Virus record (IMG/VR): IMGVR_UViG_3300027905_000005 | Location: 1 to 21,910 of that record | Origin: a virus | Strand: one strand, 5' to 3' | Length of the DNA stretch: 21,910 nucleotides | Shown: one piece after another, positions 2,474-18,629 of the stretch | Position numbering within the stretch: the first letter of the stretch is position 1 | Layout of the letters: each line of letters opens with the position of its first letter | The notes under the pieces: generated by a model | The model's input: only the letters and a program-made list of their open reading frames with translations | Told to the model about the DNA's origin: nothing | The model's database searches: none | Program-made: the position numbers and the translations under genes

Positions 2474-2641
2474 TCGTGAAATCCTCCATACCCTACATAC
2501 AGTACAGTAAGCCCCGAGCTTGCGGGAGTCGCGCGCGAAGCGAAACGATGAAGCTTGCCACGTCCATCGGCAGTATCGGCGATCACGCGATTCGACCCGC
2601 TGTTTACCCAGCCCGTGCGGATCGAGGAATTCAATCGCCCG

Positions 2642-3865
2642 ATGCTTTCCGATGAAGTCGAGACGGCGCAAACCGTGTCGCTCATGGATGAACTTTCCGA
2701 ACAAGACGCGGCCCACCGGCTTGTGATCGATGCCACGGCGCGCGCCCTTGATGAAGATGGTTTGACGTTCGATGCTTCACCGCTGGAAAAGACGGTAGCG
2801 ATTTACTGGTTCCTGAAAAGGAGTATCAGATATGTACCCACCGAAGGCACCAGCCCATTAGTCGATCAGACTTTGATTCCACCAGCCACACTTTTGGCGA
2901 TGCCAGATCCGGAGGGCGACTGTCCCCAGTTCTCAATGCTGGCATCGGCCATGCTCCGCGTGTGTTGCATTCCGAGTTTCTATAAGACCATCGCGGCGGC
3001 GGAAGAGTACCCGAACACCTACAGCCACATCTACAACATGGTGGACGTTGGCGGCGGTTCGTTCATGCCTTTCGATTCGTCGAACGGCCCCGCCCCCGGC
3101 GCGGAGTTTGCGCACCCTTATAAGGCGCGCGTGTGGCCACAGATAAGAAAGATCACCTGTGACGGGACCGCACCTTCCCGCGATCGAGGCGTCACGAGTG
3201 ACAGGGCGCCCGCGACGATGGGCCGGCCCGTCACGCGTGACGCGGCCGGAAGCTTTCAGCCGCGGCAAGTCACGAAAGGAAATCGAGCCATGCAGCGAAT
3301 GAGAAACGCCCCCGTGGGAAATCGCAACGCTATTCTGAGACGCGGGTTGCAGCATGGCCACCTGTTCTATCCGCTTCAGGGTTTGCGGCGACTCGGCCAG
3401 GACGATGGCAGCGATATAGCCGATACGTTCTCATCCGGCCCCGGTTCAGCCACGCCCGATTACTACACTCCGGCCACGACGAGCGGCCCGACGTGCGGAG
3501 TAGATATCGCGTGCGGTTCGAACCCGACAGCGGCGGAACTGGCCAACGCGGGGTTTCCCCTGGCGACCGCGATTGCAACCGCACCCAGCCCCGTCACCGG
3601 CAATTCGTCCCCGAGCCCCACCACACTGGCGGCAGCTCTCGCAGCCGACGCCACGCAACTGGTTTCGCCGATCATCAAGGCGGCAACGCAGCAACAGCCG
3701 TACTACATCACGAACCCGCAGACCGGCCAGTCAGTTCTCTACAACCCGAACACCGGAGGCACGGCGGGAACATTCGGCGCAAGCCTTTCATCACTTAGTC
3801 CGACCACGATTCTGATAGGCGTGGTTCTCATCGGAGCCCTGGCCATGTTCAGCGGGAAGAAATGA
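2642..3865 (+). CDS. Transglutaminase-like cysteine-protease-fold protein, followed by a low-complexity linker and a C-terminal membrane anchor.
   Basis: Cys/His/Asp arrangement GDCPQFSMLASAMLRVCCIP ... YSHIYNMV ... PFDSSNG with transglutaminase-core-like spacing. ATG 2642 has GAGGA at 2624-2628; the alternative TTG at 2555 is the track start. C-terminus TTILIGVVLIGALAMFSGKK. An internal Met at 3290 has its own RBS-like AAAGGAAA. Confidence 0.55.
   Translation: MLSDEVETAQTVSLMDELSEQDAAHRLVIDATARALDEDGLTFDASPLEKTVAIYWFLKRSIRYVPTEGTSPLVDQTLIPPATLLAMPDPEGDCPQFSMLASAMLRVCCIPSFYKTIAAAEEYPNTYSHIYNMVDVGGGSFMPFDSSNGPAPGAEFAHPYKARVWPQIRKITCDGTAPSRDRGVTSDRAPATMGRPVTRDAAGSFQPRQVTKGNRAMQRMRNAPVGNRNAILRRGLQHGHLFYPLQGLRRLGQDDGSDIADTFSSGPGSATPDYYTPATTSGPTCGVDIACGSNPTAAELANAGFPLATAIATAPSPVTGNSSPSPTTLAAALAADATQLVSPIIKAATQQQPYYITNPQTGQSVLYNPNTGGTAGTFGASLSSLSPTTILIGVVLIGALAMFSGKK
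3152..3273. promoter_or_regulatory. Repeat array A: four sites phased at 39 bp, lying in frame inside CDS 2642..3865.
   Basis: ATCACCTGTGAC at 3152, GTCACGAGTGAC at 3191, GTCACGCGTGAC at 3230, and a GTCAC half-site at 3269. GGGCCGGCCCGTCAC at 3220-3234 and GTGACAGGGCGCCCGC at 3198-3213. Confidence 0.8.
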
Positions 3866-4584
3866 TCCGCAACGTTTCCACGCTGAGAGCCACAGGCCCC
3901 GCTTACCGGCGCAAGCTGGGACAGACGGGCGCACTTGCCGCGATGAACTTCAACCCGATCACGGCGGGCATCAGCGTGGGAGTCGGACTGGCCAGCACCG
4001 CCGTTTCCGACTGGATGAACTCGATTCAGCTCTCACACGACGCGGACACCGCAACAACTCTTATAGTGAACGGACTGGCGACACAGCTTGCGAATCTGGA
4101 CTCCGCTTACTTTGCCGAGAACCCGCCATCGTGCGCCGATCAGCGCGCGGCGCTCGATGCGTACGATGAGGCATGGGCATGGCTTCAATCCCCGGCAGCG
4201 TGTGGAAATCCGAGTTACGGACGTGCCGGCAACGCCTGTATCAGCGATAGGGCCCCAGGCGGAAAGTTCCCATGGGCAACTTACTACCGCACACCCATAG
4301 CGAACGATCCGCGCCTGGCCAATGCGGGATGCGACACCAGCCAGCAAGTCATTCTGCCGTCACTCACCACGGGAACTTATCAGCCGACCGGGATCACGGC
4401 GGCGGGACAACTCGATAACACCACACCGGCCCCGACGCAAACGCAAACGCAAACACAGCCCGCGGCCGCATCGTCCGTTCCAGCGGGATCGGCCGCAATT
4501 CCCCCGGCAGCTATTCCCGCGTCTATCTCACCCGTTTTGATTTACGCAGCACTGGGACTGGGAGCCCTTTTCTTAATCCGATGA
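3862..4584 (+). CDS. C-terminally anchored Cys-containing protein with a TQTQTQ / Pro-Ala-rich stalk. Putative virion or membrane protein.
   Basis: ATGA overlap with the upstream stop; alternative start at ATG 3943. The C-terminus ISPVLIYAALGLGALFLIR is a hydrophobic helix followed by a basic residue. Confidence 0.6.
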   Translation: MIRNVSTLRATGPAYRRKLGQTGALAAMNFNPITAGISVGVGLASTAVSDWMNSIQLSHDADTATTLIVNGLATQLANLDSAYFAENPPSCADQRAALDAYDEAWAWLQSPAACGNPSYGRAGNACISDRAPGGKFPWATYYRTPIANDPRLANAGCDTSQQVILPSLTTGTYQPTGITAAGQLDNTTPAPTQTQTQTQPAAASSVPAGSAAIPPAAIPASISPVLIYAALGLGALFLIR

Positions 4585-5117
4585 TGCACACCCTGAGAGG
4601 ACCGGCCCGCCGAATCGCCATCGTCCAGGTTCCGCGCACGCAACTGAACCGGCTGGGAAGAATCGGGAGCATTCGAGAGGAAGACTGGTCGATTATTCCG
4701 AGCGGGTTTACACAGCTCACCGATGAACCTTACATGCCCGCGCAACCGACCGACGCCAGCGGGCAGAAAGTAACCAGCCCGCCGACAACTTCACAGTGGA
4801 TAGCTTCCATTATCCAGGCGCAATCGACGGCGCGCGAATCGACCCCCGGCACTTTGATCTATACCCCGGCGCCACGCGTGGCGGCGCCCGTCGTGGCGCG
4901 CTGGAACAGTTGGGCGGGTCCCTGCGCCACCGCCACACCCGGCGATGCCAGCTCGAGCGCGGGAAACGGCAACGGCACCGTGACCGCAACCGATTCGACG
5001 GCCACACCACCAGCGGCTACCGGACTGAACATTCCAGGAATCCTTTACGTGGCGGCGGCGTTGGGCGCGTTCGCATCGGCGGCGTACTTACTTGACAGTC
5101 TGACGGGAAGGAAATAG
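4581..5117 (+). CDS. C-terminally anchored Ser/Thr/Pro/Ala-rich protein.
   Basis: ATGA overlap with the upstream stop. C-terminus NIPGILYVAAALGAFASAAYLLDSLTGRK. Confidence 0.55.
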   Translation: MMHTLRGPARRIAIVQVPRTQLNRLGRIGSIREEDWSIIPSGFTQLTDEPYMPAQPTDASGQKVTSPPTTSQWIASIIQAQSTARESTPGTLIYTPAPRVAAPVVARWNSWAGPCATATPGDASSSAGNGNGTVTATDSTATPPAATGLNIPGILYVAAALGAFASAAYLLDSLTGRK

Positions 5118-5123
5118 GAATCC

Positions 5124-6269
5124 ATGGCACAAGGCGGCAGCGGCACGACTTTAGTTTTAGTGGCGGGCGCGGGCATCGGCGCTTATTTCTACTGGCCTGA
5201 AATTTCCGCGTGGCTCACGTCGATGGGTGTTCCGCTTCCGGGTTCGACACCGGCCCCGCCCGCGCAATCGAGCACACCGTCAACCCTTCCACCGGCGACA
5301 CCCCCCGGAGCGCAGACCACCAACAGCACGCCCGTGGTGAATCAGTGGCAACCGGCGGCGGGTTCCGTGCCCATCGGAAATTCAGGTTGCTATTCCTATG
5401 CAGGCGTCATCAGTTGCCCGCCCGGAATGACAGCCCCGCCCCCGGCGCAACCCGCGAACAACTGCCAGCCAGGGTACACGGTCGATGCAAGCGGCATCTG
5501 CACCGAATACACGGACGCGCAGATAGTCGCAGGGTTGAACTCGATCCAGTGGAGCGGCCTTAATAACATTCCCGCCGAGCAGATCAACCGCATCGATCCG
5601 CAACTGTTGGCCGAATACACGACCATGACCGGCGTAACACCGGGCAGCGTTCTTGCCTACATGCTGGGACTGGGAGGGGCAGCAGCCAGCGGAACGCAAG
5701 TCACCGGCACGGACGGGAACCTTTACATCATGCAGGGCGGTTTGTTCATGCGTCAGGCAAAGGGAACCCTTTCGGGAATTCGCGGCGCGCGTCTGGGAGC
5801 GATAGCGGCGGCGCTTCCGGTCACCAACGACATTCTGATGAAGGCCAGCTATGACCCGGACACCGCAGCCATCTTAGGCAGCGATCCGCGCGGACTGTTG
5901 ACCGTGGCTCAGTGGAATTATTTCTACTCTCAGGCCAGCGGCGTTCTGCAATCGAAACCCACACATCCGTTTGGAGAGCAGGGCGCGAAGATCAACGCAC
6001 AGCAGTATCAGGCGCTCAGGCAGCAAGCCGGGTTGCCCGTGAAGCTGGGAACGATTCACAACTCGCGGCCCGGAGCCTTTCCGCTGGGAAGCATTCGAGA
6101 CGGAGCCAGCCGCACACCGTTTTCGTATCCAGGCAATCGGAACATCTACCGCATACCAGGGCGCGGCGCGGTTCCGCAAAAGATGGGAACGATTTCGAAT
6201 GGCGGCGGCGATCATCGCTGGAGTCGAAGCCCGTTTCCCCGGCCCGCATGGTGGCGAACCGCTGAATGA
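5124..6269 (+). CDS. N-terminally anchored protein, 381 aa, with a Pro/Thr-rich stalk and a Cys-containing globular part. Putative virion/membrane protein.
   Basis: ATG 5124 is preceded by GGAAGGAAATAGGAA. N-terminal hydrophobic helix TTLVLVAGAGIGAYFYW. The longest ORF in this interval. Confidence 0.6.
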   Translation: MAQGGSGTTLVLVAGAGIGAYFYWPEISAWLTSMGVPLPGSTPAPPAQSSTPSTLPPATPPGAQTTNSTPVVNQWQPAAGSVPIGNSGCYSYAGVISCPPGMTAPPPAQPANNCQPGYTVDASGICTEYTDAQIVAGLNSIQWSGLNNIPAEQINRIDPQLLAEYTTMTGVTPGSVLAYMLGLGGAAASGTQVTGTDGNLYIMQGGLFMRQAKGTLSGIRGARLGAIAAALPVTNDILMKASYDPDTAAILGSDPRGLLTVAQWNYFYSQASGVLQSKPTHPFGEQGAKINAQQYQALRQQAGLPVKLGTIHNSRPGAFPLGSIRDGASRTPFSYPGNRNIYRIPGRGAVPQKMGTISNGGGDHRWSRSPFPRPAWWRTAE

Positions 6270-6697
6270 GCATCAGAACCCCAAGACGGCGAAGGCTGGG
6301 AGACGATCCCAGCGCATTCGGCGCAACGTGTCAGCCTGCTTGCAGTGCGGGCGGGACTCTTTGCCCGGACCCGTCAGGGTTTCTTTCATCCCTGAATCCG
6401 TGTTGCTCGTCGATCTACAACGCAGCCCCCGGCGACGGATATTGCGGAGGCGGTTCGAGCCCGACAGTAAGCGCGATCAGCAGTCAGGTGGGAGGCGCAC
6501 AGGACCCATGCACGGCGGGCGGGTTGCTTTGTCCGCAACCCGATTCGACCGGCGCAAGCCTCAACCCGTGTTGCTGGTCGAGCGCGGCGTCAGCCACCAA
6601 CACGGCCCCGCCCGCCACGAGTTCGATTCTGCTATGGGGCGGCGGCGTGCTCATCGTCGGACTGATTTTATTCGGAGGAGGGAGTAGGCGCAGATGA
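6266..6697 (+). CDS. Cys-rich, C-terminally anchored protein with an internally duplicated Cys motif.
   Basis: ATGA overlap. Motif pair CSAGGTLCPDPSGFLSSLNPCCSS / CTAGGLLCPQPDSTGASLNPCCWS. C-terminus ILLWGGGVLIVGLILFGGGSRRR. Confidence 0.6.
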   Translation: MSIRTPRRRRLGDDPSAFGATCQPACSAGGTLCPDPSGFLSSLNPCCSSIYNAAPGDGYCGGGSSPTVSAISSQVGGAQDPCTAGGLLCPQPDSTGASLNPCCWSSAASATNTAPPATSSILLWGGGVLIVGLILFGGGSRRR

Positions 6698-7143
6698 TAC
6701 GCAACGTCCCCGAGGCCGTGGGTGTAATCGATCGGTCGATTCTGAAATGGAGATCGCAGCACCTTCGTGGCGCGTGTTGCAGCGCGTGCGGAGCCACGGG
6801 CGGACATTGCGGCGAAACCGGCCCGCCCATCGGCGCGCCCGCCCAGCACACACACAAGACGTTCGGCGTTTTGGGCGACGTGCAATGCGATCAGGACGGC
6901 AACTGTTACGACAGCTCAACCGGCGAACTGCTTTCGAGCCCGGCGGAAGCGGCGGCGGGAAACCCGGCCTACATCATGAGCGGCCCGAATCCGACAGCGC
7001 AGCAGATAGCGGCGGGAATGCCATCGGCGGGAATGCCCTCTACCGTATCGTCGGTTTCGGCGTGGTTCTCTAACAACTCAGCCACCCTTGTGGGTTTGGG
7101 CGCACTCGTCGGAGTGCTGGCCTTCGTAAGCGGGCGCAGATGA
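6694..7143 (+). CDS. Cys-rich, C-terminally anchored protein.
   Basis: ATGA overlap. It starts MIRNV, like the gene at 3862. Contains CCSACGATGGHCG. C-terminus ATLVGLGALVGVLAFVSGRR. Confidence 0.6.
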   Translation: MIRNVPEAVGVIDRSILKWRSQHLRGACCSACGATGGHCGETGPPIGAPAQHTHKTFGVLGDVQCDQDGNCYDSSTGELLSSPAEAAAGNPAYIMSGPNPTAQQIAAGMPSAGMPSTVSSVSAWFSNNSATLVGLGALVGVLAFVSGRR

Positions 7144-7847
7144 GCAAACTACGCGGACAAGCCAAGGCCGAATTTCTGGCGCGCATGGCGAAGGGACGGA
7201 AGAAGGCGGCGCGCGGCAACCCGAAGGCCAAAAAGAGCGTGACGGGCCGGCCCAAACACAAAGCTGCAGCGTCACGCAACGCGGGACCCCGCAGCGTGCG
7301 CAAGAGCAAAAAGGCGATGAAAAAGTTTCTGCCTGGGTTCAAGCGCAAGAAGCGGCGGAATCAGGAAGACAGCATCGAGAGCGCGGCGGAAAAGTTCGCT
7401 GAGTTCCACGGCAAGCCCCCGGGCCGCATCGTCGAATACGAACAGGGTTACAACTACCCGGAGAACTACGCGGAGATGGGCAAGCTGAAAGAGCTTCGGT
7501 TCGACCTGAATACGCTGAACCGCGATTTCCCGCTTTCCAATTTCAAGGACTGTCAGGCGGTCTGCACACCGGACGGGAGCAACATCTATTTCATCGGCGG
7601 CGATCAGCGCATCGACTTCGAGGCGCTCGATATCGCCAGCGACAAAGATTTCGTGGAGCTTGGCCCATGCCGCTACATCATGTACCACACCGTGAAAGGG
7701 TTCCACGATTTTGACCCAACGGACTACTGGCACCGATTCGGCGAAGAGAACAACATCTTTCCGGTTCTGGCCTACGACCGTTTGAACCACACGCTCTTTT
7801 TGATCGGCGGAGACTACCGCGTCAGACCCGAAGGAATCGTGAACTGA
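7140..7847 (+). CDS. Protein with a highly basic (Lys/Arg-rich) N-terminal region of about 75 aa and a globular C-domain. Putative internal / DNA-associated virion protein.
   Basis: ATGA overlap. N-terminus KGRKKAARGNPKAKKSVTGRPKHKAAASRNAGPRSVRKSKKAMKKFLPGFKRKKRRN. The C-domain carries a repeated FIGGDxR motif (IYFIGGDQRI, LFLIGGDYRV). Confidence 0.6.
   Translation: MSKLRGQAKAEFLARMAKGRKKAARGNPKAKKSVTGRPKHKAAASRNAGPRSVRKSKKAMKKFLPGFKRKKRRNQEDSIESAAEKFAEFHGKPPGRIVEYEQGYNYPENYAEMGKLKELRFDLNTLNRDFPLSNFKDCQAVCTPDGSNIYFIGGDQRIDFEALDIASDKDFVELGPCRYIMYHTVKGFHDFDPTDYWHRFGEENNIFPVLAYDRLNHTLFLIGGDYRVRPEGIVN
7239..7275. promoter_or_regulatory. Repeat array D: two half-sites inside CDS 7140..7847.
   Basis: GTGACGGGCCGGCCC at 7239-7253 and GTCAC at 7271-7275, in the same 39-bp phase as arrays A and B. 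Confidence 0.7.
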
Positions 7848-7859
7848 AGAGGAGAACCG

Positions 7860-8642
7860 ATGGCAAAGGCATTGAAAAAAGTTCGCGTTGCTTCCAACCC
7901 TCACCGGAAGCCCGCATCGAAGAAAAGACCGAACGCTAAGAAAGGGAGTCACACGCACCACATGGCAAACAACAAGAAGAAGAACAAAGCGGCCAGTCAC
8001 CACAAGAAGAAGGGCAACCCGGCCACGCATCACAGACGGCGCGGGAAACGGAACCCCAGCCTATCGGGAATCATCGGAAGCCCGAAAGAAATTCTCATCA
8101 GCGCCGTGGCGGGAACGGCTGGTTTCGTGGCATCGTCGCAGATTCCGCAGTTGATTTTGCAGGCGAACAACACGGGACCCATGGGCTACGCGGCGAACGC
8201 AGCCACCGGCGTGGCCATCACGCTGGCGGCGGGCGCATTCGCGGGACCCGTTGCAGGGCGCGCCGCTATGGTGGGTTCGCTCGTCATGCTGGTGGACCGG
8301 CTGATAACCGAGAACCTTTCGAGCATCGGCCCCTATCTGACGATTTCAGGCGTGGGCGACGCAACGGCCACGCACCGCATGGGAACCATCCGCGATGGTT
8401 ACTATCTTCACCCCACGATGGTGGACGGACAGGGCAACATGATCGTGCCCGATCCCGTCACCCAGGCGGCTATTGCCGCAGTGCTGGCAAAGTACCCGCA
8501 GATCGCGGCCCCGCTTGCCCAGGCGGTTCAAACGGGCGGCAAGATGGGCGCGGTAAACCCTTCCGGCCTTCGCAGGCACACGGCAAGCGGGCAGCTTTTG
8601 AGCAGCCGTTTCCAGAGCAGATTTAATCAGGCCCTCAATTAA
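7860..8642 (+). CDS. Protein with a basic, His/Lys/Arg-rich N-terminus followed by 2-3 hydrophobic helices. Putative membrane-embedded DNA-binding virion protein.
   Basis: ATG 7860 has an AAGAGGAGAA RBS. N-terminus RKPASKKRPNAKKGSHTHHMANNKKKNKAASHHKKKGNPATHHRRRGKRNP. Hydrophobic segments ILISAVAGTAGFVA, GVAITLAAGAFAGPVAG and AAMVGSLVMLV. Confidence 0.65.
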   Translation: MAKALKKVRVASNPHRKPASKKRPNAKKGSHTHHMANNKKKNKAASHHKKKGNPATHHRRRGKRNPSLSGIIGSPKEILISAVAGTAGFVASSQIPQLILQANNTGPMGYAANAATGVAITLAAGAFAGPVAGRAAMVGSLVMLVDRLITENLSSIGPYLTISGVGDATATHRMGTIRDGYYLHPTMVDGQGNMIVPDPVTQAAIAAVLAKYPQIAAPLAQAVQTGGKMGAVNPSGLRRHTASGQLLSSRFQSRFNQALN

Positions 8643-8678
8643 GGGGCAGCAGCAAAAGACAGGAAGAGGAAAAGAAAA

Positions 8679-9233
8679 ATGAGCAGCAGCCCCAGCGTAT
8701 ACGTCCCCGGAAAAGTCAGAACGATTCAAAGCCCGTACTACGATACCTACCTCGTCAGTTCGGGCGGAACCGTCAACGCCGGAGGACTCACCAAAATGTT
8801 CGGCAACATCCAGGGTGTCGGAGGGATCGGCCCGAACATCACCAACATGCAGCAAGCCTTTCAGCTCAGTGGCGGCGAGAGCTTTTTACTCTCGTCGTTC
8901 CGTTGCGTGTTCATCGGTTGCGCCCTTGCGGACGTGAACAGCTTTTTCATCAACAACACCGTGCGCCTCATCATCGGCACGGGAAACTTTGCGTACGCGG
9001 ACGCGCCCGCCGAATATTGGGCATCGGGCGCGGGAGCCTACGGAGGGACCAGCGCGGCGGCGACCAACGGGATACCAGACCCGCGCGCCATCGTGCCTTT
9101 CGATGTCGATCCCATCGAGTTGACCGACGGCGTTAACTTTCACGTGGAACTGATCGGCGTGGCCTTCAGTGCGACGGCTAACTTTACGCTCCGGGTGTAT
9201 CTGGACGGCCAGAAAACCCAGCCCGCGCAGTAA
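8679..9233 (+). CDS. Beta-rich structural protein candidate, 184 aa, possibly a capsid subunit.
   Basis: Strong purine-rich RBS (AGGAAGAGGAAAAG). Followed by a structured 84-nt spacer. Composition is typical of beta-sandwich virion proteins. No motif-level identification. Confidence 0.55.
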   Translation: MSSSPSVYVPGKVRTIQSPYYDTYLVSSGGTVNAGGLTKMFGNIQGVGGIGPNITNMQQAFQLSGGESFLLSSFRCVFIGCALADVNSFFINNTVRLIIGTGNFAYADAPAEYWASGAGAYGGTSAAATNGIPDPRAIVPFDVDPIELTDGVNFHVELIGVAFSATANFTLRVYLDGQKTQPAQ

Positions 9234-9317
9234 GCGTCCACCATCGTTCGGAACCGGCGAGGGGCACCGGCGCGCCTCGTCAGTTCGGGCGAGTAACCGA
9301 ACATCGAGAGGATAAAT

Positions 9318-9731
9318 ATGTCTCCAACAGGAAGCCCCGCAAGCGGCGGCGGCGCGACTGCGCAGCCCACGTTTGTGGAAGAACCGGCAACATACGTTTT
9401 CAATTACACCCTCAGCTCAGGACAGGCGGTCACGCGCGTGGCGGTCAACATCGACCGTGATTCGGATTTTGCCCTGACGGGCATCAACGGAGTGAGCACT
9501 GGAGGCTACACGCTGAATGTTCGACTCCCATCCGGGCGGCTCATCGGCAGCGCGCAGATGATTTCAACGCAGTTCGTTTCGTCGAACCCGAACCAGCCCA
9601 CGGCCATCGGTCCCCCGCCCATCTACCGCGCGGGTTCGACCGGCCCCGAACTGGACCTGACGGATACGAGTCTGGCAAGTAACACGCTGCAACTTATTTT
9701 TTCGGGCATCCGCAGACTGAGAACGCAGTAA
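9318..9731 (+). CDS. Beta-rich structural protein candidate, 137 aa.
   Basis: ATG 9318 is preceded by GAGAGGA. Clean ORF with no competing frame. Confidence 0.55.
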   Translation: MSPTGSPASGGGATAQPTFVEEPATYVFNYTLSSGQAVTRVAVNIDRDSDFALTGINGVSTGGYTLNVRLPSGRLIGSAQMISTQFVSSNPNQPTAIGPPPIYRAGSTGPELDLTDTSLASNTLQLIFSGIRRLRTQ

Positions 9732-9750
9732 CAGAACGAAGGAAGGGGAA

Positions 9751-10308
9751 ATGCTGAATAACCCGTGGATCGATCCGCGCGGCGTTGACTGGACAGACAG
9801 CCTGAACCCGTTGACGAAGCCCGGATGGAGCCTGAATAACAATCAGTTCGCTTTCGAGTCGTTGCAGGACCCGATTTTCGTGGCGCTTCGAAACGCCATC
9901 GGCATCGAGGCGCGGATATGGGTATGCCCCGATCCCGTGAACCAGAGCATCGCGCCGCAGGTTACCAGCGCCTACAACGTTCCCGCGGAACCGAATACGT
10001 GGGTATGGGCGCTCAATGCCATCAGCAACCCAGGCACCACACCGGACCCGGCAGGATTCTATGTGCAGGTGTCCGACTCTCTCACCGGCGCGAATCTTTT
10101 CAGTTCACCCGTGCTGAATAGCAACCTTGACGGCGCGCGGACCACGGCGGGCGATGCGAAGCAATGCCCCCTCATCCTCATCGCGGCCCCAAGACTCTTT
10201 ATCCCCCCGGCCTATCCCATCGTCACGATTGTGAACTTATCCATGAGCGCGCAGACCTGCATCGTGCAGTTGTTTTGCGCAATCGAAACGGACACGGTGT
10301 CAGTCTGA
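9751..10308 (+). CDS. Beta-rich structural protein candidate, 185 aa.
   Basis: ATG 9751 is preceded by GGAAGGGG. Stop at 10306-10308. Confidence 0.55.
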   Translation: MLNNPWIDPRGVDWTDSLNPLTKPGWSLNNNQFAFESLQDPIFVALRNAIGIEARIWVCPDPVNQSIAPQVTSAYNVPAEPNTWVWALNAISNPGTTPDPAGFYVQVSDSLTGANLFSSPVLNSNLDGARTTAGDAKQCPLILIAAPRLFIPPAYPIVTIVNLSMSAQTCIVQLFCAIETDTVSV

Positions 10309-10802
10309 TGGCAGGCAGTTATATTACTTCGAGCCCCGCCGTTCTCAGCCCTTACAACCTACAGCTTGAGCAGCGGCGGAACACTCTGGCGACGGCGATC
10401 CGCTACGCCCTCACGCCCGGATGCAACCCCATCACGGGCAAACCGAACCTCACGCCCAACCAACTGCGAAAGCAGCTTCTTTCGGTTCCGATCAACGCGA
10501 CCGTGGCGGGAGACAATCCGCTCATCCCCACGACTTCCGGCCCCATCAGCATTTACGAAGTGGTGATCTGGAACGCATCGGCCGCACCGGTGAACCTTAC
10601 TTTTTTCCAAGGCGGATCGGGCGGCATTCTGTTGTTGCCTCTGCCGAATTTTCCAGCGACTACAGGGTTTACGCTTGGGTTCAACGGTTCTTTCGATCAA
10701 CCCCATTTCGAGATCGACAGCGGGCAGCAGTTCGTTTTGAACCTTTCGACCGCTGGCCCCGTTACCGGGATGTGCCGCTACAAGATTCAGAACGGCACAT
10801 GA
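10308..10802 (+). CDS. Beta-rich structural protein candidate, 164 aa.
   Basis: ATG 10308 overlaps the upstream stop (TGATG). It is the internal Met of track ORF 10164..10802, whose upstream part overlaps the previous gene. Confidence 0.5.
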   Translation: MAGSYITSSPAVLSPYNLQLEQRRNTLATAIRYALTPGCNPITGKPNLTPNQLRKQLLSVPINATVAGDNPLIPTTSGPISIYEVVIWNASAAPVNLTFFQGGSGGILLLPLPNFPATTGFTLGFNGSFDQPHFEIDSGQQFVLNLSTAGPVTGMCRYKIQNGT

Positions 10803-10811
10803 TGAGGCGGC

Positions 10812-10926
10812 GTGACACTCCGGAGGCGCGCGGCGGGCGCCCTGTCACCGTGACGGGCCGGCCCAGGCACGCGCCGGCAGCGTCACATGTGACGAGTCGA
10901 CGCGTTGAAGGCCCCAGCTCAGTCAC
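10812..10926. promoter_or_regulatory. Repeat array B: fills the intergenic gap upstream of the capsid-candidate gene.
   Basis: GTGAC at 10812-10816. GCGGGCGCCCTGTCAC-C-GTGACGGGCCGGCCC at 10833-10864. GTCACATGTGAC at 10882-10893. GTCAC at 10922-10926, abutting ATG 10927. Spacings are 38-40 bp. Confidence 0.8.
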
Positions 10927-12030
10927 ATGCAACCGCTGACTTTCAAGGGCGCGCTGAACGTCGGGCTTTTCAAACTGCCGTACCAGGTCCCCAACCCTTC
11001 TTTCATCACGCCATATCGTTGGATGCCCGATTCATGGAGTTTGTCAGACGACATCGCAGGGACCACGCGCACGCTCAGATTGTTGCGCCTAACGGCCCCC
11101 GTGGTGAACGTCCTCTCTAACACCGGGCCATCAGCGCCGAACGGAGGGCAAGGAAGCATATGGGGCGCGCAGGCGCTACGCGGAACCCTGGACGGCCTGA
11201 ACAATGCCGACGCGTGTCTGTATGCCACTCCGCTAACCGGAGGCCCCTACGCGTCCGACGACAATCTTTTCGTGCCACTGTCAACAACCGGCGCGCCCGC
11301 TGGAGGATTCGGCGCGAACCCGGCCATCGTTCCGCTGGCGACGGACGCGGGAGATGTGAAATTCGCATCGTACGGCGAGGACATCACCTTCACCACTCAA
11401 TACCGGCTGTTGACCCCGGCGACCTTCACGCCACAGCAGGGATGGTTTGTTTCTCCATCGACTCCGCTCTTACCGCCGAACCTTCAAGCCTACTGGCCCG
11501 ACGCGCCGAACAAAAGAAACCGCAGCATCAATCAGGGTCTTTTCGGACTGACGAACATCATAGATTTTTTTCTCAGCGCGGACGGTTCGACGCTCACCCA
11601 GGCGACCATCGAGCAAAGCCCGCTCACCGGAAATTCGACGGTGGATTCACCGATGTACCAGCAGCCGAATCAGGCGAACGGGTTCTACATCACCGCCGAC
11701 AATTCGGGAGGCCCCGCCCCCGTCATACCCAACGGCTCACCGATCTTTTTCATTGCGGGCGATCTTAGCGCCTGGTGGGAGCTTGTCTTTTTCGCGGCGG
11801 GACCCGGCGTCAACCCGAACGATTTGGGCGGCTATGGCCCGCCGTGGGATTACGCGGCGGCCCCGCAGATCACGAGCGATGCAGAGGGGAATATCTACTA
11901 CCTGCAAAACAACGTGGCCACACCCGGATTCATGGACGTGTACAGCGGGAAGCTTCCGGGCGGCGGCTCATTCGGCGGAACTTTCGTCAGCTTCATAGTT
12001 CCCAATCAACTGGCAGGAGGCAACAAATGA
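10927..12030 (+). CDS. 367-aa virion protein; major capsid protein candidate. Size is compatible with a double jelly-roll, but the fold is unverified.
   Basis: ATG 10927 is the first start after the in-frame TGA at 10906-10908. It sits directly behind the repeat array 10805-10926. Long clean ORF just upstream of the fibre gene. No sequence motif identifies the fold. Confidence 0.55.
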   Translation: MQPLTFKGALNVGLFKLPYQVPNPSFITPYRWMPDSWSLSDDIAGTTRTLRLLRLTAPVVNVLSNTGPSAPNGGQGSIWGAQALRGTLDGLNNADACLYATPLTGGPYASDDNLFVPLSTTGAPAGGFGANPAIVPLATDAGDVKFASYGEDITFTTQYRLLTPATFTPQQGWFVSPSTPLLPPNLQAYWPDAPNKRNRSINQGLFGLTNIIDFFLSADGSTLTQATIEQSPLTGNSTVDSPMYQQPNQANGFYITADNSGGPAPVIPNGSPIFFIAGDLSAWWELVFFAAGPGVNPNDLGGYGPPWDYAAAPQITSDAEGNIYYLQNNVATPGFMDVYSGKLPGGGSFGGTFVSFIVPNQLAGGNK

Positions 12031-13901
12031 GCGCACCGATTCTTACGCACGCGGCGACCACCTTGGGGTTGAACTTTCAATACCCACTCCAGAGCACGCA
12101 GGACAGCGAACCCACGGTAGAAATCGTTCCGGGCGCAAGCGGCCAGGTGCTCACGTCGAACCCGGCAGCACCGGGCGGCGTTGACTGGGAGACACCGAGC
12201 CCCGGCTTTACAAATCCCATGACCACGAAAGGAGACATCATCGCGGCAGGCGTTGGAGGGACACCGGCGCGGGTGGCTGTAGGAACCAACGGTCAGGTGC
12301 TCACGGCGAATTCAGCGGCGGCGGATGGCGTTGACTGGGAGACACCGAGCCCCGGCTTTACAAATCCCATGACCACGAAAGGGGATGTGATCGCGGGCGG
12401 CGTGGCGGGCGCACCGGCGCGACTGGGAGTAGGAACCAACGGCCAGGTGCTCACGGCGAATTCGGCGGCGGCGGATGGCATCGACTGGGAAACGCCCTTC
12501 ACAAGTCCGATGACTACGAAGGGCGATTTGATCGCGGGCGCGGCGGGCGGCATCCCGGCGCGCGTGGGAGTGGGAATCAACGGCCAGGTGCTGACCGCGA
12601 ATTCGGCGGCGGCGGACGGCGTCGATTGGGAAACACCCAGCGCGGGTTTCGCCAATCCGATGACTACCAAAGGCGATCTGATCGCGGGCGCGGCGGGCGG
12701 CATCCCGGCGCGCGTGGGAGTGGGAATCAACGGCCAGGTGCTCACCGCGAATTCCGCGGCGGCGGACGGCATCGATTGGGAAACAGCGGCAACGGGAACC
12801 GTTACTAACAGCAGCGGCGCTCTGACGGCGGACCTTCCAGTTTTCGGCAATGGGGCGGCGGACGTAAAAGTAGGAACAAAAACCGGAAACACCGATAAGC
12901 TGGTAACCCAGGCAGGCGCGGCCACCAGCGGCGCTCCATTGCTCTATGACGCATCCGGCAACGCGATAGCAGGGAGCAAGACCGGCAACACGTCCGAACT
13001 CGTCACAGCGACTGGCGCGGCCACCAGCGGCTATCCGTTGCTCTATGACGCATCAGCCAACGCCATTGGCCAACAGCCACGCGGGAACACGACAGTGGTA
13101 CAGCTTGCCGATTCCACGACAAACCCGACCAGCGGAGACCTAACCAGTTTCGACGCCAACGGGAACGTGATGGATTCCGCGATTCTGGCCAGCGCTGTGG
13201 CTCTGACGGCAAACGTCGTACCCAAAACGCGCAACGTAAATACAGCGGCCCCGCTTGCGGGCGGCGGCGGTCTCAGCGCCGATCTGAATTTGACGATCGC
13301 AACCGCAGGCGTGGGAACGCTAGGCGCATCGAGCCCGGACGGAACGACTATCGCCGTGACAGCGGGAGTTTATCGCGTGCTGACTCCGGCAGCGCCGAGC
13401 GGCGCTGCATTCTCACAGGATGCCCCATGGTTCACCACATCGAGTTCGAACTGGCAAAATCTGACTCTGTTTTGCCGTATCCGAGGTTGGACACTTTCGG
13501 CATTCCCGGCGAGCTGGACGGTGAAGATTTTGTTTCTTGCCGGAAGCCCCGTAATCGGCAATATGGTCATCCTGAAAACGATTGCCGCAGGTCCCACCGT
13601 TGGCGTGGCGGTTATCTCCACCACTTCAGTAACCATCGGAGGCGTGAGCAATCCGACGCTGGTAACTCCGTCGATTGTGACGACGGACGCCATCACCCTG
13701 GCACTCGACAACGCGCATGAATTTTATTTCCTGATCTTTTTCGCCAACAACGCGGCGAACGTGGCGGTAAGCCTGGGAGCAACCCCGGCCACGACCGGCA
13801 ACACTTTCGATATCTCCGGAGATCAAACCGGCATCAGCAGTCTACCGGCACTGGGAGCCGGAAACGGCAGTGTAGGGATCATGGGTCTATTCTTCCCATA
13901 G
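12027..13901 (+). CDS. Fibre / spike (receptor-binding) protein with tandem 50-aa repeats.
   Basis: ATG 12027 overlaps the upstream stop (ATGA), with GGAGG at 12016-12020. There are 4.3 repeats of GQVLTANSAAADG(V/I)DWETPSPGFTNPMTTKGD.IAG..G..AR.GVG.N, then two 33-aa repeats (KTGNT..LVT..GAATSG.PLLYDAS.NAI). The track start 11775 lies inside the previous gene. Confidence 0.7.
   Translation: MSAPILTHAATTLGLNFQYPLQSTQDSEPTVEIVPGASGQVLTSNPAAPGGVDWETPSPGFTNPMTTKGDIIAAGVGGTPARVAVGTNGQVLTANSAAADGVDWETPSPGFTNPMTTKGDVIAGGVAGAPARLGVGTNGQVLTANSAAADGIDWETPFTSPMTTKGDLIAGAAGGIPARVGVGINGQVLTANSAAADGVDWETPSAGFANPMTTKGDLIAGAAGGIPARVGVGINGQVLTANSAAADGIDWETAATGTVTNSSGALTADLPVFGNGAADVKVGTKTGNTDKLVTQAGAATSGAPLLYDASGNAIAGSKTGNTSELVTATGAATSGYPLLYDASANAIGQQPRGNTTVVQLADSTTNPTSGDLTSFDANGNVMDSAILASAVALTANVVPKTRNVNTAAPLAGGGGLSADLNLTIATAGVGTLGASSPDGTTIAVTAGVYRVLTPAAPSGAAFSQDAPWFTTSSSNWQNLTLFCRIRGWTLSAFPASWTVKILFLAGSPVIGNMVILKTIAAGPTVGVAVISTTSVTIGGVSNPTLVTPSIVTTDAITLALDNAHEFYFLIFFANNAANVAVSLGATPATTGNTFDISGDQTGISSLPALGAGNGSVGIMGLFFP
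12141..12790 (+). repeat. Coding tandem repeat, period 150 nt with one 141-nt unit, about 4.3 copies.
   Basis: Units begin with GG(C/T)CAGGTGCT at 12141, 12291, 12441, 12582 and 12732. Long stretches are identical at the DNA level between units 1 and 2 and between units 3 and 4. Confidence 0.9.
12879..13076 (+). repeat. Coding tandem repeat, period 99 nt, 2 copies.
   Basis: KTGNTDKLVTQAGAATSGAPLLYDASGNAIAGS / KTGNTSELVTATGAATSGYPLLYDASANAIGQQ, with the shared DNA core GGCGCGGCCACCAGCGGC...TTGCTCTATGACGCATC. Confidence 0.85.
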
Positions 13902-13917
13902 AGCGAAAGGAGCACGA

Positions 13918-14118
13918 ATGGACAAGGAAATACAACACAAGCCCGCCCCGAAAGACGAGATCGAGCGCAAGCACCCGGTACACCGGGCTTTGCATTTGCT
14001 TCTGACCCACGCGGCGGTTCAACAGCCCGAGATCGCCAAGGAAACGGCGAAGATCAAAGACGCGCTGGACGAAGAGTTTTTGAAAAAACCGGCAGCACCG
14101 GCAGAAGGAGAAGAGTAA
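13918..14118 (+). CDS. Small helical, charged protein, 66 aa.
   Basis: ATG 13918 is preceded by GAAAGGAG. Confidence 0.5.
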   Translation: MDKEIQHKPAPKDEIERKHPVHRALHLLLTHAAVQQPEIAKETAKIKDALDEEFLKKPAAPAEGEE

Positions 14119-14121
14119 ACC

Positions 14122-14541
14122 ATGGGTTCGAATTTTCCCCCAGGCACACCACCAATCGGCTACACCGAAGCGTTTTCACTAACCGGACTCGTTGCGGCTC
14201 TCACAACCCGCACGATGTACACCGCGCAGGTTGCAGGGCTTTACGCAGTGGGTTTTTGCTGCAACATCGTGGCCACGAACAAAGCGGGAACCATTGCCTG
14301 CACGCTGGGAACCCCCCACGCTGGCACCGTCGTCGTAGGCGTAGCGCCAGCGGCCCCCGGCGATACTCAGACAGCCATCGAGCAGGACCCGGCCTTAGGA
14401 GGCGCAACGCCCGTCGATGGGTACAGCGCCATGATTCCCGTGTGGATGAATGCGGGCGATGTGGTGACCTTTGCCACCGCCGTGGGAGGTTTAACAGGAA
14501 CCACCTACAACGTGTACGTGGCGGTTCAGCGCCTGCTTTAA
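14122..14541 (+). CDS. Small beta-rich protein, 139 aa. Possibly a fibre-associated or receptor-binding accessory protein.
   Basis: ATG 14122 lies 3 nt after the upstream stop and is preceded by GGAGAAGAG. The C-terminal segment (GYSAMIPVWMNAGDVVTFA ... YNVYVAVQRLL) loosely resembles the end of C1q/TNF-like jelly-roll domains. Confidence 0.5.
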   Translation: MGSNFPPGTPPIGYTEAFSLTGLVAALTTRTMYTAQVAGLYAVGFCCNIVATNKAGTIACTLGTPHAGTVVVGVAPAAPGDTQTAIEQDPALGGATPVDGYSAMIPVWMNAGDVVTFATAVGGLTGTTYNVYVAVQRLL

Positions 14542-15509
14542 CCCCGCCGATTCCGGCGAGGAGGACCTGCAGCAACACCGGAAACGGCGATATCGGCCGT
14601 CACCGTTCGAAGTGGCGATGGTGACCGGCGCGGCGCGCCGTTTCCGGCGATGGTGGACGTCGCAGGCAGCTCCGTTTTCAGCGATGGGGGATCCAAATCC
14701 ACTTCACCGATAGCAGCCAGCAGCGCCCGCCGTTCGAGCAAAGGCATTCGCCGAATCTTATTCACCCACCGCAGCTTTTTTCGTTTGATCCGTTCCCGTG
14801 CGCGGAAGTCCCCGCCGAGATACGTATAGTCATGCAGCGCCACCGGCTCAGGAAAGTTACACCAGAGCCATTCCGTTCGAGGCGTTCCCCCCCGCGTCAT
14901 AGTCTGATACTGCACCGTATCCCAGCCCGAAAGAAATTCGGCGTAGCGTTCGGACCAGTAACCCGAGATCATCACCCGGCAGGGCAGGCGGCGCAGAATC
15001 GACAAGAGCAACATATGGTCCAGGTCGTTCAGCTCGCATCGGTAGATATCACGAGGACCACGCGTTTCACGCATGTAGGGCGGATCACAGTACACCAGCT
15101 CCGAGCCCCCGAAGGGATAGGCCGAAAGGAAGGGAATCGCATCACCGTGGAACAAATGCCACGCGGGTCCGGCCACGTCGTTTTTGGCGATCCCGGCCCG
15201 TTTTCCACTTTTGAACAGCCCCACAATCGCTTCAGGTGCTTTCGGCGCGGCCTTCCCAATAGCTGAGGACCCGGAAACGCGAGAGCGCGATCGCTCAACG
15301 CCGGAAATGGCGATTCCTCCGGCGGAATCGCTGAAAGTGACGAGGGGATCCAAATTCAGATCGATTCCGATGTTCAGCAGCGCGGGTTTCTTCAGGCGCA
15401 TGATGGCACCCCCGCCCAGAAACGGTTCGAGGTACACGTCATGCGGCGGCATCCGGTTAATGATGGTCTGAAAAACACCGGCCCCGTTCTTTCCGCCCGG
15501 ATACGTCAA
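14538..15509 (-). CDS. N6-adenine DNA methyltransferase, Dam-like (D12 class).
   Basis: N-terminal YPGGK, motif I EPFLGGGAI and catalytic DPPY (LVYCDPPYM). TTG start at 15509 has GGGGAGG 5 nt upstream and overlaps the stop of the upstream methyltransferase (TTGA). Confidence 0.85.
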   Translation of the reverse strand: MTYPGGKNGAGVFQTIINRMPPHDVYLEPFLGGGAIMRLKKPALLNIGIDLNLDPLVTFSDSAGGIAISGVERSRSRVSGSSAIGKAAPKAPEAIVGLFKSGKRAGIAKNDVAGPAWHLFHGDAIPFLSAYPFGGSELVYCDPPYMRETRGPRDIYRCELNDLDHMLLLSILRRLPCRVMISGYWSERYAEFLSGWDTVQYQTMTRGGTPRTEWLWCNFPEPVALHDYTYLGGDFRARERIKRKKLRWVNKIRRMPLLERRALLAAIGEVDLDPPSLKTELPATSTIAGNGAPRRSPSPLRTVTADIAVSGVAAGPPRRNRRG

Positions 15510-16321
15510 AGTGTGCCTCCCCGGGTGACAACGCCCCGCGCGGCGTCACGCTTGCGTTCCATCCGTTTCCTACAGGCGGGACCCGCCGATATCGCCTTGC
15601 CCTTCACAGGGCGCGCGCAACCGCACACACACAACCGGATGGAATCACCCGGCACCGGCGAAACGACAGCCCCCGCTATGAAGCGCGCCACTTCGAGATG
15701 CACCCCGTTACCCACGGCCCGATACTTTGCGCCGAGCGTGAAGGAAGGAAGATCAAAATCCGAGGGCAAGCCCTGCAATGCACAGAAGGCCCCGAAGTCC
15801 CGGCGCGTTCCCCCCGTCGAAGCCAGCAAAGTGGGAGCTGGCATCGACGGCCCCGACGATGGACGCTGCAGATAGAGCACGTATCCGGCCCGATGGCCGA
15901 ATTGAAAGTGACGGAGGCGGCGTTGCCCCACGCCCAAATGTTTGGCGTCGATATCGATTCTCTGATGGCTGTAACCGGCAATCGGAACGTCAGGGCACCC
16001 CGGCACGTTTTCGAGGAGCCACCAGCGCGGGCGCACTTCGAGAACGACCCGGCGGAACTCCCGCAGCATTTCGACACCGTACCCGCTGGGAGCCCCACGG
16101 CGCGCGCGCGAGAAGTCCGGGCAGGGTGAACCCGCTATCACTCCATCGAAGCGGCCAGCGGGCGCGTGGAACTCTCTTATATCCCCGCCGAAAATCAAAT
16201 TGGGACCCCGCACAACGCTGAACCCCTGGGATTCGAACCCACGTCCCAGCAGATCGATGCCTGGAAAGAGCGAAAGAACCAGTTGTGACGAGTAGCTACG
16301 TTTCCGGCGATGTGCGCCCAC
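15506..16321 (-). CDS. DNA (cytosine-5) methyltransferase, compact at 271 aa, with a Cys-rich C-terminal tail.
   Basis: Motif I LFPGIDLLGRGF, motif IV GSPCPDFS, motif VI LLENVPG, motif VIII-like HLGVGQRRLRHF, motif X YRAVGNGV. The C-terminal CVCGC...C could be a zinc ribbon. The GTG start at 16321 is uncertain because the RBS is too close. Confidence 0.85.
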   Translation of the reverse strand: MGAHRRKRSYSSQLVLSLFPGIDLLGRGFESQGFSVVRGPNLIFGGDIREFHAPAGRFDGVIAGSPCPDFSRARRGAPSGYGVEMLREFRRVVLEVRPRWWLLENVPGCPDVPIAGYSHQRIDIDAKHLGVGQRRLRHFQFGHRAGYVLYLQRPSSGPSMPAPTLLASTGGTRRDFGAFCALQGLPSDFDLPSFTLGAKYRAVGNGVHLEVARFIAGAVVSPVPGDSIRLCVCGCARPVKGKAISAGPACRKRMERKRDAARGVVTRGGTL

Positions 16322-16440
16322 GTCCCTCGATGATCGTCAAAAACGGCGATGAAGTCAAGCGGTACAATCCGAGGCGTGGCGGGTTGCCCGTGCTTAATCC
16401 CGGCTCATGACACTCCAACGCGAGGCCAGCGCACCCGCCC
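16322..16440. promoter_or_regulatory. Divergent intergenic region between the methyltransferase operon and the plus-strand accessory block.
   Basis: 119 nt of non-coding sequence between divergent starts. It contains a -10-like TACAAT at 16363-16368 (plus strand) and TTGACG on the minus strand at 16335-16340. No convincing paired -35/-10. Confidence 0.3.
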
Positions 16441-16707: not shown

Positions 16708-16719
16708 TACAATTCCCCC

Positions 16720-18255: not shown

Positions 18256-18259
18256 GCCC

Positions 18260-18619: not shown

Positions 18620-18629
18620 ACTGGGAGCC

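Follow-up and report, generated by a model that had tools for sequence, protein, structure and literature searches.

A circular 21.9-kb element with a conserved structural-looking gene block and no recognisable packaging motor: a candidate temperate, tailless jelly-roll virus

How could an element of more than 20 kb be carried in a virus particle if it codes for no machine to pump its DNA? To our knowledge, the bacterial double-stranded DNA (dsDNA) viruses with icosahedral capsids described so far fill them by means of a P-loop motor, and virus-discovery pipelines lean on hallmark genes of this kind. The question is raised by the IMG/VR record IMGVR_UViG_3300027905_000005, which we analysed over its whole stretch of 21,910 nucleotides (referred to as the window in the rest of the paper). 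An initial annotation, made from the letters and their open reading frames (ORFs), had pointed to a virion-like block of genes at 2642-14541 and had proposed a new virus lineage with a tailless, lipid-containing virion. Our results partly support this interpretation, which is the best available once amended on three points: a 367-aa protein drops out as a capsid candidate, the element appears to be temperate through Xer/dif recombination, and the virion is inferred. The reading that we favour, with restrained confidence, is that of a temperate, tailless, membrane-associated jelly-roll virus whose DNA would be condensed by two basic proteins rather than pumped.

A gene block without a packaging motor

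The first 37 bp of the window are an exact copy of its last 37 bp, and an independent JGI contig of 21,948 bp (L001), which opens near window position 13,993, reads through the window ends. Because of this direct terminal repeat and of the contig that crosses the junction, the window is a complete circular genome and no fragment: the repeat is where the assembly of a circle of 21,873 unique bases overlaps itself. More than half of the circle (~12 kb) is occupied by a conserved, structural-looking block of 18 consecutive plus-strand genes, whose ORFs coincide with those of the initial annotation. Most stop and start codons within the block overlap, and Shine-Dalgarno motifs of the GGAG/AGGA type are present. 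Its main features are as follows.

2642..3865 (+): predicted transglutaminase-like cysteine protease/hydrolase (Pfam Transglut_core, E 1.9e-5), C-terminal transmembrane (TM) helix at residues 385-403
3862..4584 (+): C-terminally anchored membrane protein, 240 aa, TM helix 221-239, conserved in the family
4581..5117 (+): C-terminally anchored membrane protein, 178 aa, TM helix 153-171, conserved in the family
5124..6269 (+): conserved 381-aa protein, 43-57% identity among relatives; weakly hydrophobic N-terminus (peak hydropathy 1.2, residues 4-22), membrane association possible and marginal
6266..6697 (+): Cys-rich, C-terminally anchored small protein, 143 aa, TM helix 121-139, variable and found in close relatives only
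6694..7143 (+): C-terminally anchored small protein, 149 aa, TM helix 129-147, sharing a segment with the transglutaminase-like protein
7140..7847 (+): core protein 1, with a Lys/Arg-rich basic N-terminal arm and a conserved C-terminal domain
7860..8642 (+): core protein 2, with a Lys/Arg/His-rich basic N-terminal arm followed by Gly/Ala-rich hydrophobic helices
8679..9233 (+): core protein 3, predicted single jelly-roll of 184 aa, candidate major shell protein and most conserved gene
9318..9731 (+): small protein of 137 aa, 53-86% identity, ranking second in conservation among the structural genes
9751..10308 (+): conserved small protein, 185 aa, 38-82% identity among relatives, no family match
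10308..10802 (+): conserved small protein, 164 aa, 42-76% identity, no family match
10927..12030 (+): variable 367-aa protein, closest relatives only, with a probable role in host recognition
12027..13901 (+): fibre/spike protein of 624 aa, tandem repeats of 50 aa at 12140-12785 and repeats of 33 aa at 12862-13059
13918..14118 (+): small ORF, 66 aa, with a Shine-Dalgarno motif, poorly conserved
14122..14541 (+): small protein of 139 aa whose gene closes the block, conserved in six relatives at 32-48% identity

The initial annotation had seen no Walker A motif. We scanned all six frames of the window for the pattern [AG]xxxxGK[ST] and found none in any plausible gene frame, the only two matches, at 19434(+) and 18251(-), being off-frame or non-coding. 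The ORFs at all related loci contain only scattered, non-conserved matches and no conserved P-loop. Because no Walker A is present, the window cannot code for a ParA, VirB4 or coupling-protein ATPase, and partition and conjugation ATPases are thereby ruled out. Scans of the window proteins with Pfam, PHROGs and NCBIfam confirmed the reported lack of hallmark genes: they returned no terminase, portal, protease or scaffold, no known capsid or major capsid protein (MCP), no double jelly-roll (DJR) capsid family and no FtsK/HerA packaging ATPase, polymerase, helicase, integrase or primase. Searching PDB sequences with profiles of four family alignments gave no match either. All that the three libraries recognised were the replication initiator, HNH nucleases, methyltransferases and fibre repeats already listed in the initial annotation, identified here as an O-like initiator with a DnaA_N domain, two HNH nucleases, D12 and C5 methyltransferases and fibre repeats, together with a transglutaminase-like core and a lysozyme/transglycosylase-like domain.

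The most conserved protein of the element is the 184-aa product of 8679..9233, with 79-92% identity among relatives compared to 31-60% for the other genes in a tblastn matrix. AlphaFold (AF2) modelling from a 38-sequence alignment predicted an all-beta protein of eight to nine strands and one helix, with a predicted local distance difference test score (pLDDT) of 77 and a predicted TM-score (pTM) of 0.75. The fold class of the model is clear, a single jelly-roll, which is one of the folds that the initial annotation had thought might be found here. Foldseek comparison of the model with PDB gave nothing below E 1e-3. The best of the weak matches, at TM-scores of 0.3-0.4, were all jelly-rolls: the Pam1 cyanophage cement protein, TNF/C1q domains, and capsid proteins from small viruses with RNA or ssDNA genomes; comparison with predicted viral structures likewise yielded weak jelly-roll matches. 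The extreme conservation of the protein favours a shell protein over a receptor binder.

Thirty of the 74 full-length close homologues carry an N-terminal TM anchor, formed by an extension of ~35 residues in which the TM helix is followed by LHRRRxRAWA (P0001, P0013, P0017, P0034, P0041, P0058, P0074 and others). The window's copy lacks this anchor, an in-frame stop codon lying 11 codons upstream, and a 95%-identical relative possesses it. Since so many homologues are anchored and the window's copy is not, the jelly-roll protein probably works at a membrane, with the anchor itself dispensable, and the anchored homologues fit a lipid-associated shell.

Two proteins with basic N-termini had been described upstream of the jelly-roll gene, and residue counts bear this out, with 26 and 23 Lys+Arg in the first 70 residues of core proteins 1 and 2, respectively. 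Core protein 1 (net charge +15) combines an arm whose length varies among relatives from ~45 to 170 residues, bearing the amphipathic motif KLxGxAKxxFLxRMAxGRxKA that is duplicated in some relatives, with a C-terminal domain that is constant among relatives and has invariant F89, H90, H189, Y196, H198 and F200 (alignment A5). It had no family or PDB match in the Pfam, PHROGs, NCBIfam and PDB profile searches. Core protein 2 (net charge +27) has marginally hydrophobic helices and is a candidate linker between DNA and membrane. In L008, the group that diverges most among those found, these three genes are the only ones recognisable and stand in the same order, basic 1, basic 2 and jelly-roll; basic protein 1 was detected by hmmsearch at 6.4e-12 and basic protein 2 at E 2.9e-4 in the same position. 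We regard this triad as the core of the module.

Downstream of the triad, locus L008/L009 (JGI Ga0315294_10004157, 15.8 kb) has a gene for an M15 peptidoglycan peptidase and three genes for large unassigned proteins of 673, 670 and 782 aa, suggesting that the core triad combines with different accessory genes.

A divergent hallmark protein could best hide in the 460-aa product of 1091..2473 (-), the only large conserved soluble protein without an assignment, and for this reason it was modelled. This protein, whose alpha/beta N-domain is followed by a helical C-domain and an acidic tail, had no Pfam, PHROG, NCBIfam or PDB-sequence match. The AF2 model built with 39 sequences (pLDDT 73, residues 30-180 and 350-440 confident) found no PDB match in Foldseek (best E 0.056, TM-score <=0.22) and displayed no portal, terminase, HK97 or ATPase fold, so that the suspicion of a hidden hallmark in this gene was not borne out. 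A tailed-phage portal and HK97 MCP are thus lacking by family match and in the 460-aa model, the 184-aa protein is a predicted jelly-roll, and the small proteins encoded at 9318-10802 are too short for a portal or HK97 fold.

The sole soluble protein of DJR size is the 367-aa product of 10927..12030, and it is not conserved in the family. It was among the proteins that the initial annotation had proposed for jelly-roll and HK97 fold searches, and we set it aside as a DJR capsid candidate because of this lack of conservation. Like the fibre, it occurs in the closest relatives only, and unrelated genes of 335-491 aa fill the slot elsewhere. Both genes are variable and so behave as host-recognition genes, which they probably are, rather than coding for capsid proteins. 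The same two genes set L001 apart from the window: a G to A change at 11445 turns a Trp codon (TGG to TGA) of the 367-aa gene into a stop codon, and the copy number of the fibre tandem repeat differs (a repeat indel, 12368 onward), which we read as population variation. Tandem Repeats Finder (TRF) resolved the fibre repeats, already noticed in the initial annotation, into 4.4 copies of 150 bp; a second repeat has a unit of 99 bp. The fibre matched PHROGs 33513, 32934, 23837 (virion structural) and 38058 (tail fibre), and weakly matched Streptomyces phage proteins.

For the remainder of the block the initial annotation proved partly right. Where it had counted at least seven membrane-anchored proteins, a firm C-terminal TM helix is present in five, and two more (5124-6269 and 7860-8642) are only marginally hydrophobic; outside the block, the lysozyme-like protein also has a TM helix. 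Four small beta-rich proteins had been claimed; the product of 8679-9233 is all-beta by model and the others are beta-rich by composition only. All-against-all profile comparison detected no paralogy among the small proteins. The 137-aa protein gave a marginal match to a PHROG annotated 'virion structural protein' (E 0.082), and PHROG scans of its family and of the basic-protein families returned only singleton matches to unannotated PHROGs. In the transglutaminase-like protein, Cys94, His129 and Asp145 are invariant in 7 relatives, and residues 247-301 are homologous to residues 59-106 of the 6694-7143 product (hhalign 96%).

The family, its dif-like site and probable hosts

Homologues of the 184-aa protein form 82 clusters at 90% identity, 50-95% identical to the query, and those of the 460-aa protein form 53 clusters; in both cases the longest contigs mostly measure 18-24 kb. 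An exhaustive profile search with the 184-aa family recovered 389 clusters at 50% identity, 95 of them below E 1e-10 and nearly all of 165-220 aa. The superfamily members that we looked up are unnamed metagenomic proteins, and PHROG scans of 92 members gave only singleton matches to unannotated families. Sequences identical to the window's 184-aa protein are present in a number of JGI samples, in one Logan assembly and in a metagenome-assembled genome (MAG) from NCBI. According to the tblastn matrix and ORF-level comparisons, synteny is kept in L013, L014, L016, L029, L030, L032 and L034, with a core set composed of Rep, the 460-aa and transglutaminase-like proteins, three to four membrane proteins, the two basic proteins, the 184-aa protein, the 137-, 185-, 164- and 139-aa proteins, the HNH nucleases and the lysozyme-like protein.

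No relative was found in IMG/VR scanned with the jelly-roll alignment, in INPHARED (50,697 phage records) searched by tblastn with the jelly-roll protein and Rep, or, with the same queries, in PLSDB (72,556 plasmids), and we found no prior description of the family in the literature. In line with the proposal of a candidate new lineage, the family is coherent at 18-24 kb and without match in virus, phage and plasmid resources. A complete, conserved and apparently common soil and peat family, with a structural-looking module devoid of any NTPase, is missing from IMG/VR, INPHARED, PLSDB, PHROGs, Pfam and NCBIfam.

The 'Charybdis' elements, described recently, are of a different kind (4.6 kb, marine, archaeal). 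A candidate relative and a candidate integrated copy were set aside. A Schlesneria MAG from a scan of species-representative genomes gave a 21-residue partial match (profile E 1.2e-4, in a short ORF at 1413-1622) and was rejected since its contig has no other family gene. The nanopore contig L007 (ENA ERZ26871208 contig_236764_np1212, 42,569 bp) is about twice the unit length, has no clearly cellular genes and shows many frame disruptions in its family genes; it is probably no integrated copy but the assembly of a head-to-tail dimer or concatemer.

An integrase was found nowhere in the family. The window does contain a single dif-like site, CGTTCCGCTAACGGGTGTTATGTCAACT:

16946..16973 (+): dif-like 28-mer, intergenic, CGTTCCGCTAA-CGGGTG-TTATGTCAACT, candidate attP for host XerC/XerD

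This 28-mer is identical to the predicted dif of Ca. Solibacter usitatus at 22 of 28 positions, including the whole right arm, and 500 shuffles of the window produced no site closer than 8 mismatches. Like sites (AGTTCCnnnAA-CGGnnn-TTATGTCAAnT) are found in five relatives (L013 at 16182, L014 at 14220, L020 at 15099, L029 at 12470 and L030 at 10680), and L021 has a weaker one at 9911. The sites in the relatives are syntenic, share the strand of the jelly-roll gene, which lies 6.4-8.3 kb upstream of them, and stand out as a 28-bp conserved island amid otherwise diverged DNA.

One relative, L032 (49% identity in the 460-aa protein), lies within the 253,311-bp contig Ga0683291_0000105 (JGI 3300086555). 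Its element genes (1-13936) end at Rep; 240 bp further on is ACTTCCGATAATGTATATTATGTCAAAT (14178-14205), beyond which come cellular genes for an Xre/RES toxin-antitoxin pair, MsrB, an epimerase, inositol-phosphate synthase, a LytTR regulator, an aminotransferase and a transglycosylase. The L032 28-mer agrees with the predicted Solibacter dif at 25 of 28 positions, among them the entire left arm; its central TGTATA and right arm are as in the dif site of E. coli and its left arm is of the B. subtilis type (both sequences from Kono et al. 2011, PMC3025954), and by this comparison it is a canonical dif site. Use of the host XerCD/dif system, to which the dif-like site and a relative integrated at dif point, is the most likely explanation for the absent integrase. 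These data suggest XerCD-mediated lysogeny of the element.

According to Kono et al. 2011 (PMC3025954), a Firmicutes-type profile works best for acidobacterial dif sites, and Planctomycetes yielded no dif prediction, which speaks against the weak Schlesneria match. From the dif type and a G+C content of 60-62% (the window spans 55-64%), the hosts are probably Acidobacteriota, bacteria of soil and peat. Bacterial hosts are also indicated by the Shine-Dalgarno motifs, the DnaA_N domain and the peptidoglycan-directed enzymes.

An explanation of the absent integrase by Xer/dif had not been considered in the initial annotation.

A virus, or something else?

If the element is a virus, its cycle might run as follows. 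The O-like/DnaA_N initiator would, to judge from its domains, recruit the host replisome, as the element codes for no polymerase or helicase, and host XerC/XerD would recombine the dif-like attP with the chromosomal dif, as in integrative mobile elements exploiting Xer (IMEX). The jelly-roll protein would form a lattice or shell on a lipid membrane, to be completed by the three to four small conserved proteins and the five to seven membrane-anchored ones. The basic arms may neutralise and condense the 21.9-kb DNA, which would be enclosed by co-assembly or wrapping without an NTPase pump. The variable 367-aa protein and the repeat-containing fibre would recognise the host, the anchored lysozyme-like and transglutaminase-like enzymes would act on the cell wall at entry or exit, and the two methyltransferases may shield the DNA from restriction. 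Accessories of a viral type are present in the fibre repeats, the lysozyme-like domain shared with phages, the HNH nucleases, the methyltransferases and the O-like Rep. As regards the tailless, lipid-containing virion of the initial annotation, the jelly-roll, the anchored homologues and the lack of hallmark genes support it, and the existence of the virion itself is something that we infer.

Several findings weigh against this reading. No particle has been seen, and no sampled contig is known to stem from a virus-enriched fraction. A complete set of capsid genes is not demonstrated, the structure models covering the 184-aa and 460-aa proteins. The jelly-roll model has no specific match (best Foldseek E 8.6e-4 to 1.6e-2, TM-score 0.3-0.45) and is equally compatible with a TNF/C1q-like trimeric surface protein and with a capsid protein. 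Condensation of the DNA by the basic proteins is deduced from charge alone. The membrane topology is ambiguous, because the C-terminal anchors are followed by basic residues and the jelly-roll variants are anchored N-terminally. For integration, one junction of a single integrated copy (L032) was read; its dif sits immediately before Rep and, in comparison with the window site, has the opposite orientation to the structural genes. The host assignment draws on dif similarity and G+C only. Finally, the centre of the window site, CGGGTG, is unlike those of known dif sites; in IMEX attachment sites it is usual for two good Xer arms to flank a divergent centre.

Among the alternatives, the one to be taken most seriously, although we consider it unlikely, is a non-viral integrative or plasmid-like element of the IMEX type, in which the block would code for envelope proteins (adhesins, surface fibres, membrane and TNF/C1q-like proteins) or for transfer in vesicles ('plasmid vesicles'). 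The lack of any detected capsid, portal or terminase family, the many membrane-anchored proteins and the theta-type initiator would fit, and the matches of the jelly-roll model include TNF/C1q and receptor-binding domains besides capsids; moreover, Xer-dependent integration is also known for non-viral elements, and virus-detection pipelines had not called the family contigs viral. Adhesins and receptor binders are, however, usually the most variable genes, whereas the jelly-roll gene is the most conserved one here and the variability resides in the 367-aa and fibre genes. The narrow genome size of most relatives with large contigs and the tight linkage of the basic-arm genes to the jelly-roll gene, even in divergent relatives, also argue against a non-viral element, as do the phage-type fibre repeats, the phage-type lysozyme domain and the HNH nucleases, the absence from 72,556 plasmids and the lack of a conjugation or partition ATPase. 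We regard as improbable a satellite or helper-dependent element that would supply its own structural or host-range proteins and obtain the packaging motor, and possibly the capsid, from a helper virus, a scenario that the initial annotation had named as one that would refute its proposal. Such dependence would be in line with the absence of an NTPase and of recognisable morphogenesis genes and with a temperate lifestyle without an own integrase, and some satellites do carry their own fibres or capsid-modifying proteins. A 12-kb conserved structural-looking block is nevertheless far beyond known satellites, and their usual hallmarks, integrase, primase and helper-sensing regulators, are missing; the tight size distribution and the absence of tailed or DJR virus genes within 7 kb on the 253-kb contig count against a helper as well.

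A highly divergent member of a known lineage, that is, of the tailed phages or of the membrane viruses with DJR or two single jelly-roll capsid proteins (PRD1, PM2 and P23-77 types), is a very remote prospect and is largely refuted. A circle of ~20 kb with many small membrane proteins, in which a small jelly-roll gene precedes a gene for a small conserved protein, superficially resembles P23-77 (VP16/VP17), and several genes have no structure model. Yet these lineages need a P-loop packaging ATPase, and a Walker A is found in no gene of the window and is conserved in none of the relatives. Comparison of 12 family profiles with 21 P23-77 proteins by hhalign, including the ATPase and both capsid proteins, gave nothing above 10% probability, and the capsids of P23-77, PRD1 and PM2 are not among the best 50 PDB Foldseek matches of the jelly-roll model. 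The 460-aa model displays no portal, terminase or HK97 fold, and the one protein of DJR size, of 367 aa, is not conserved.

Comparison with known systems points the same way. The hallmarks of Caudoviricetes (P-loop large terminase, portal, HK97 MCP) were not found in the element, nor was the FtsK/HerA-type (A32-like) packaging ATPase of the Tectiliviricetes and other DJR viruses (PRD1, PM2, Autolykiviridae). Phage satellites, namely phage-inducible chromosomal islands (PICI), P4-like elements and capsid-forming PICI (cf-PICI), have an integrase, a primase or replicase and a few capsid-redirecting genes, whereas the element lacks integrase and primase and has a large conserved block. Closest among bacterial viruses are the Matshushitaviridae/Halopanivirales (P23-77), of which the element is not a member: P23-77 has a bacterial host (Thermus), a circular dsDNA genome of ~17 kb, an internal membrane, many small membrane proteins, small jelly-roll capsid genes side by side (VP16, 173 aa), the structural protein VP11 and a virion-associated lysozyme/transglycosylase, but its packaging ATPase (ORF13) adjoins the capsid genes and the element has none. 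The Finnlakeviridae (FLiP, phiCjT23) are tailless bacterial viruses that contain a membrane and in which no packaging ATPase has been identified; phiCjT23 is temperate (PMC9719478). These viruses have ~9 kb of ssDNA, a rolling-circle Rep and a DJR capsid protein, in contrast to the 21.9 kb, theta-type O-like/DnaA_N initiator and predicted 184-aa single jelly-roll protein of the element.

Portogloboviridae (Sulfolobus polyhedral virus 1, SPV1) have jelly-roll capsid proteins, a small basic DNA-coating protein and no known packaging ATPase. Their genome is a dsDNA circle of ~20 kb, and in their virions a nucleoprotein core is enclosed by a lipid layer with a shell of protein outside it (PMC8459092). 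They are the closest analogue in working principle only, and we do not claim membership. The likeness consists in the circle of ~20 kb, the predicted jelly-roll protein, the basic proteins and the absence of an ATPase, the shell over lipid being a prediction for the element. Their hosts are archaeal hyperthermophiles (Sulfolobales), whereas the host signals of the element are bacterial (Shine-Dalgarno, DnaA_N, dif/XerCD, peptidoglycan enzymes), and the SPV1 capsid is not among the best 50 PDB Foldseek matches of the 184-aa model. As to integration, CTXphi, VGJphi, TLCphi, dif-integrating gokushoviruses and Vibrio DJR prophages are examples of IMEX. These elements are thus known among non-tailed phages, filamentous, gokusho- and DJR (PMC12715192, PMC7062461). 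With no integrase of its own, a 28-bp candidate attP of dif type in which XerC and XerD arms flank a divergent centre, and a relative adjoining a chromosomal dif, the element would belong to IMEX by its sequence; unlike known IMEX, it carries cargo of an undescribed kind, its hosts are probably Acidobacteriota and not Vibrio or enterobacteria, and one junction has been read.

Returning to the favoured jelly-roll virus, we put forward only tentatively the wider claim that the element founds an unrecognised, widespread lineage of bacterial dsDNA viruses, of family level or above and possibly outside existing realms, which would combine a jelly-roll lattice on lipid with two-basic-arm condensation and no packaging NTPase; on present evidence we are inclined to doubt it. 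Were it true, bacteria too would have viruses built on the principle of the archaeal portogloboviruses, here joined to Xer/dif lysogeny in Acidobacteriota, and the jelly-roll superfamily with its 389 clusters would stand for a large part of the soil virome that current tools miss. If these elements are viruses at all, a dsDNA genome of 20 kb can be encapsidated in bacteria without a motor, a new capsid-protein family can serve as a search marker, a blind spot in soil virome surveys is exposed, and Acidobacteriota, abundant and poorly studied, gain a temperate virus system. The Xer/dif link provides a practical handle, as lysogens could be found next to dif in acidobacterial genomes.

Other features of the element

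Scans of the window for tRNA genes and Rfam families found nothing, and those for iterons and promoters nothing notable. The replication initiator ORF (426 aa, 20980..387) straddles the window junction and is visible only on the rotated circle. Outside the block and in addition to the 460-aa gene and the dif-like site, the features are the following.

1..37: direct terminal repeat, identical to 21874-21910
20980..21910 (+): replication initiator, 5' part, winged-helix O-like N-domain (phrog_678 'replication initiation O-like', E 6.7e-6)
1..387 (38-387 on the circle) (+): replication initiator, 3' part, DnaA_N-like C-domain at residues 351-411 (Pfam DnaA_N, E 6.3e-5)
14538..15509 (-): D12-class N6-adenine DNA methyltransferase (Pfam MethyltransfD12, E 1.4e-6; phrog_56, E 3.7e-24)
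15506..16321 (-): C5-cytosine DNA methyltransferase (Pfam DNA_methylase, E 1.2e-16; phrog_116, E 2e-22)
18260..18619 (+): HNH/Endonuclease VII-like nuclease, 119 aa (Pfam Endonuclease_7, E 7.8e-4; several HNH PHROGs)
18815..19486 (+): HNH nuclease, 223 aa (17 HNH PHROGs, best E 1.2e-5)
19583..20350 (-): lysozyme/transglycosylase-like protein, C-terminal TM helix 228-246, conserved in relatives, candidate wall-degrading entry or exit enzyme

The domain of the lysozyme-like protein is common to tape-measure, endolysin and injection-transglycosylase PHROGs (2276, 873 and 7182; best E 1.5e-14). Converging on the 3' end of its gene is a 49-aa ORF (19483-19632) with one strong TM helix (hydropathy 2.18), which could code for a holin-like partner.

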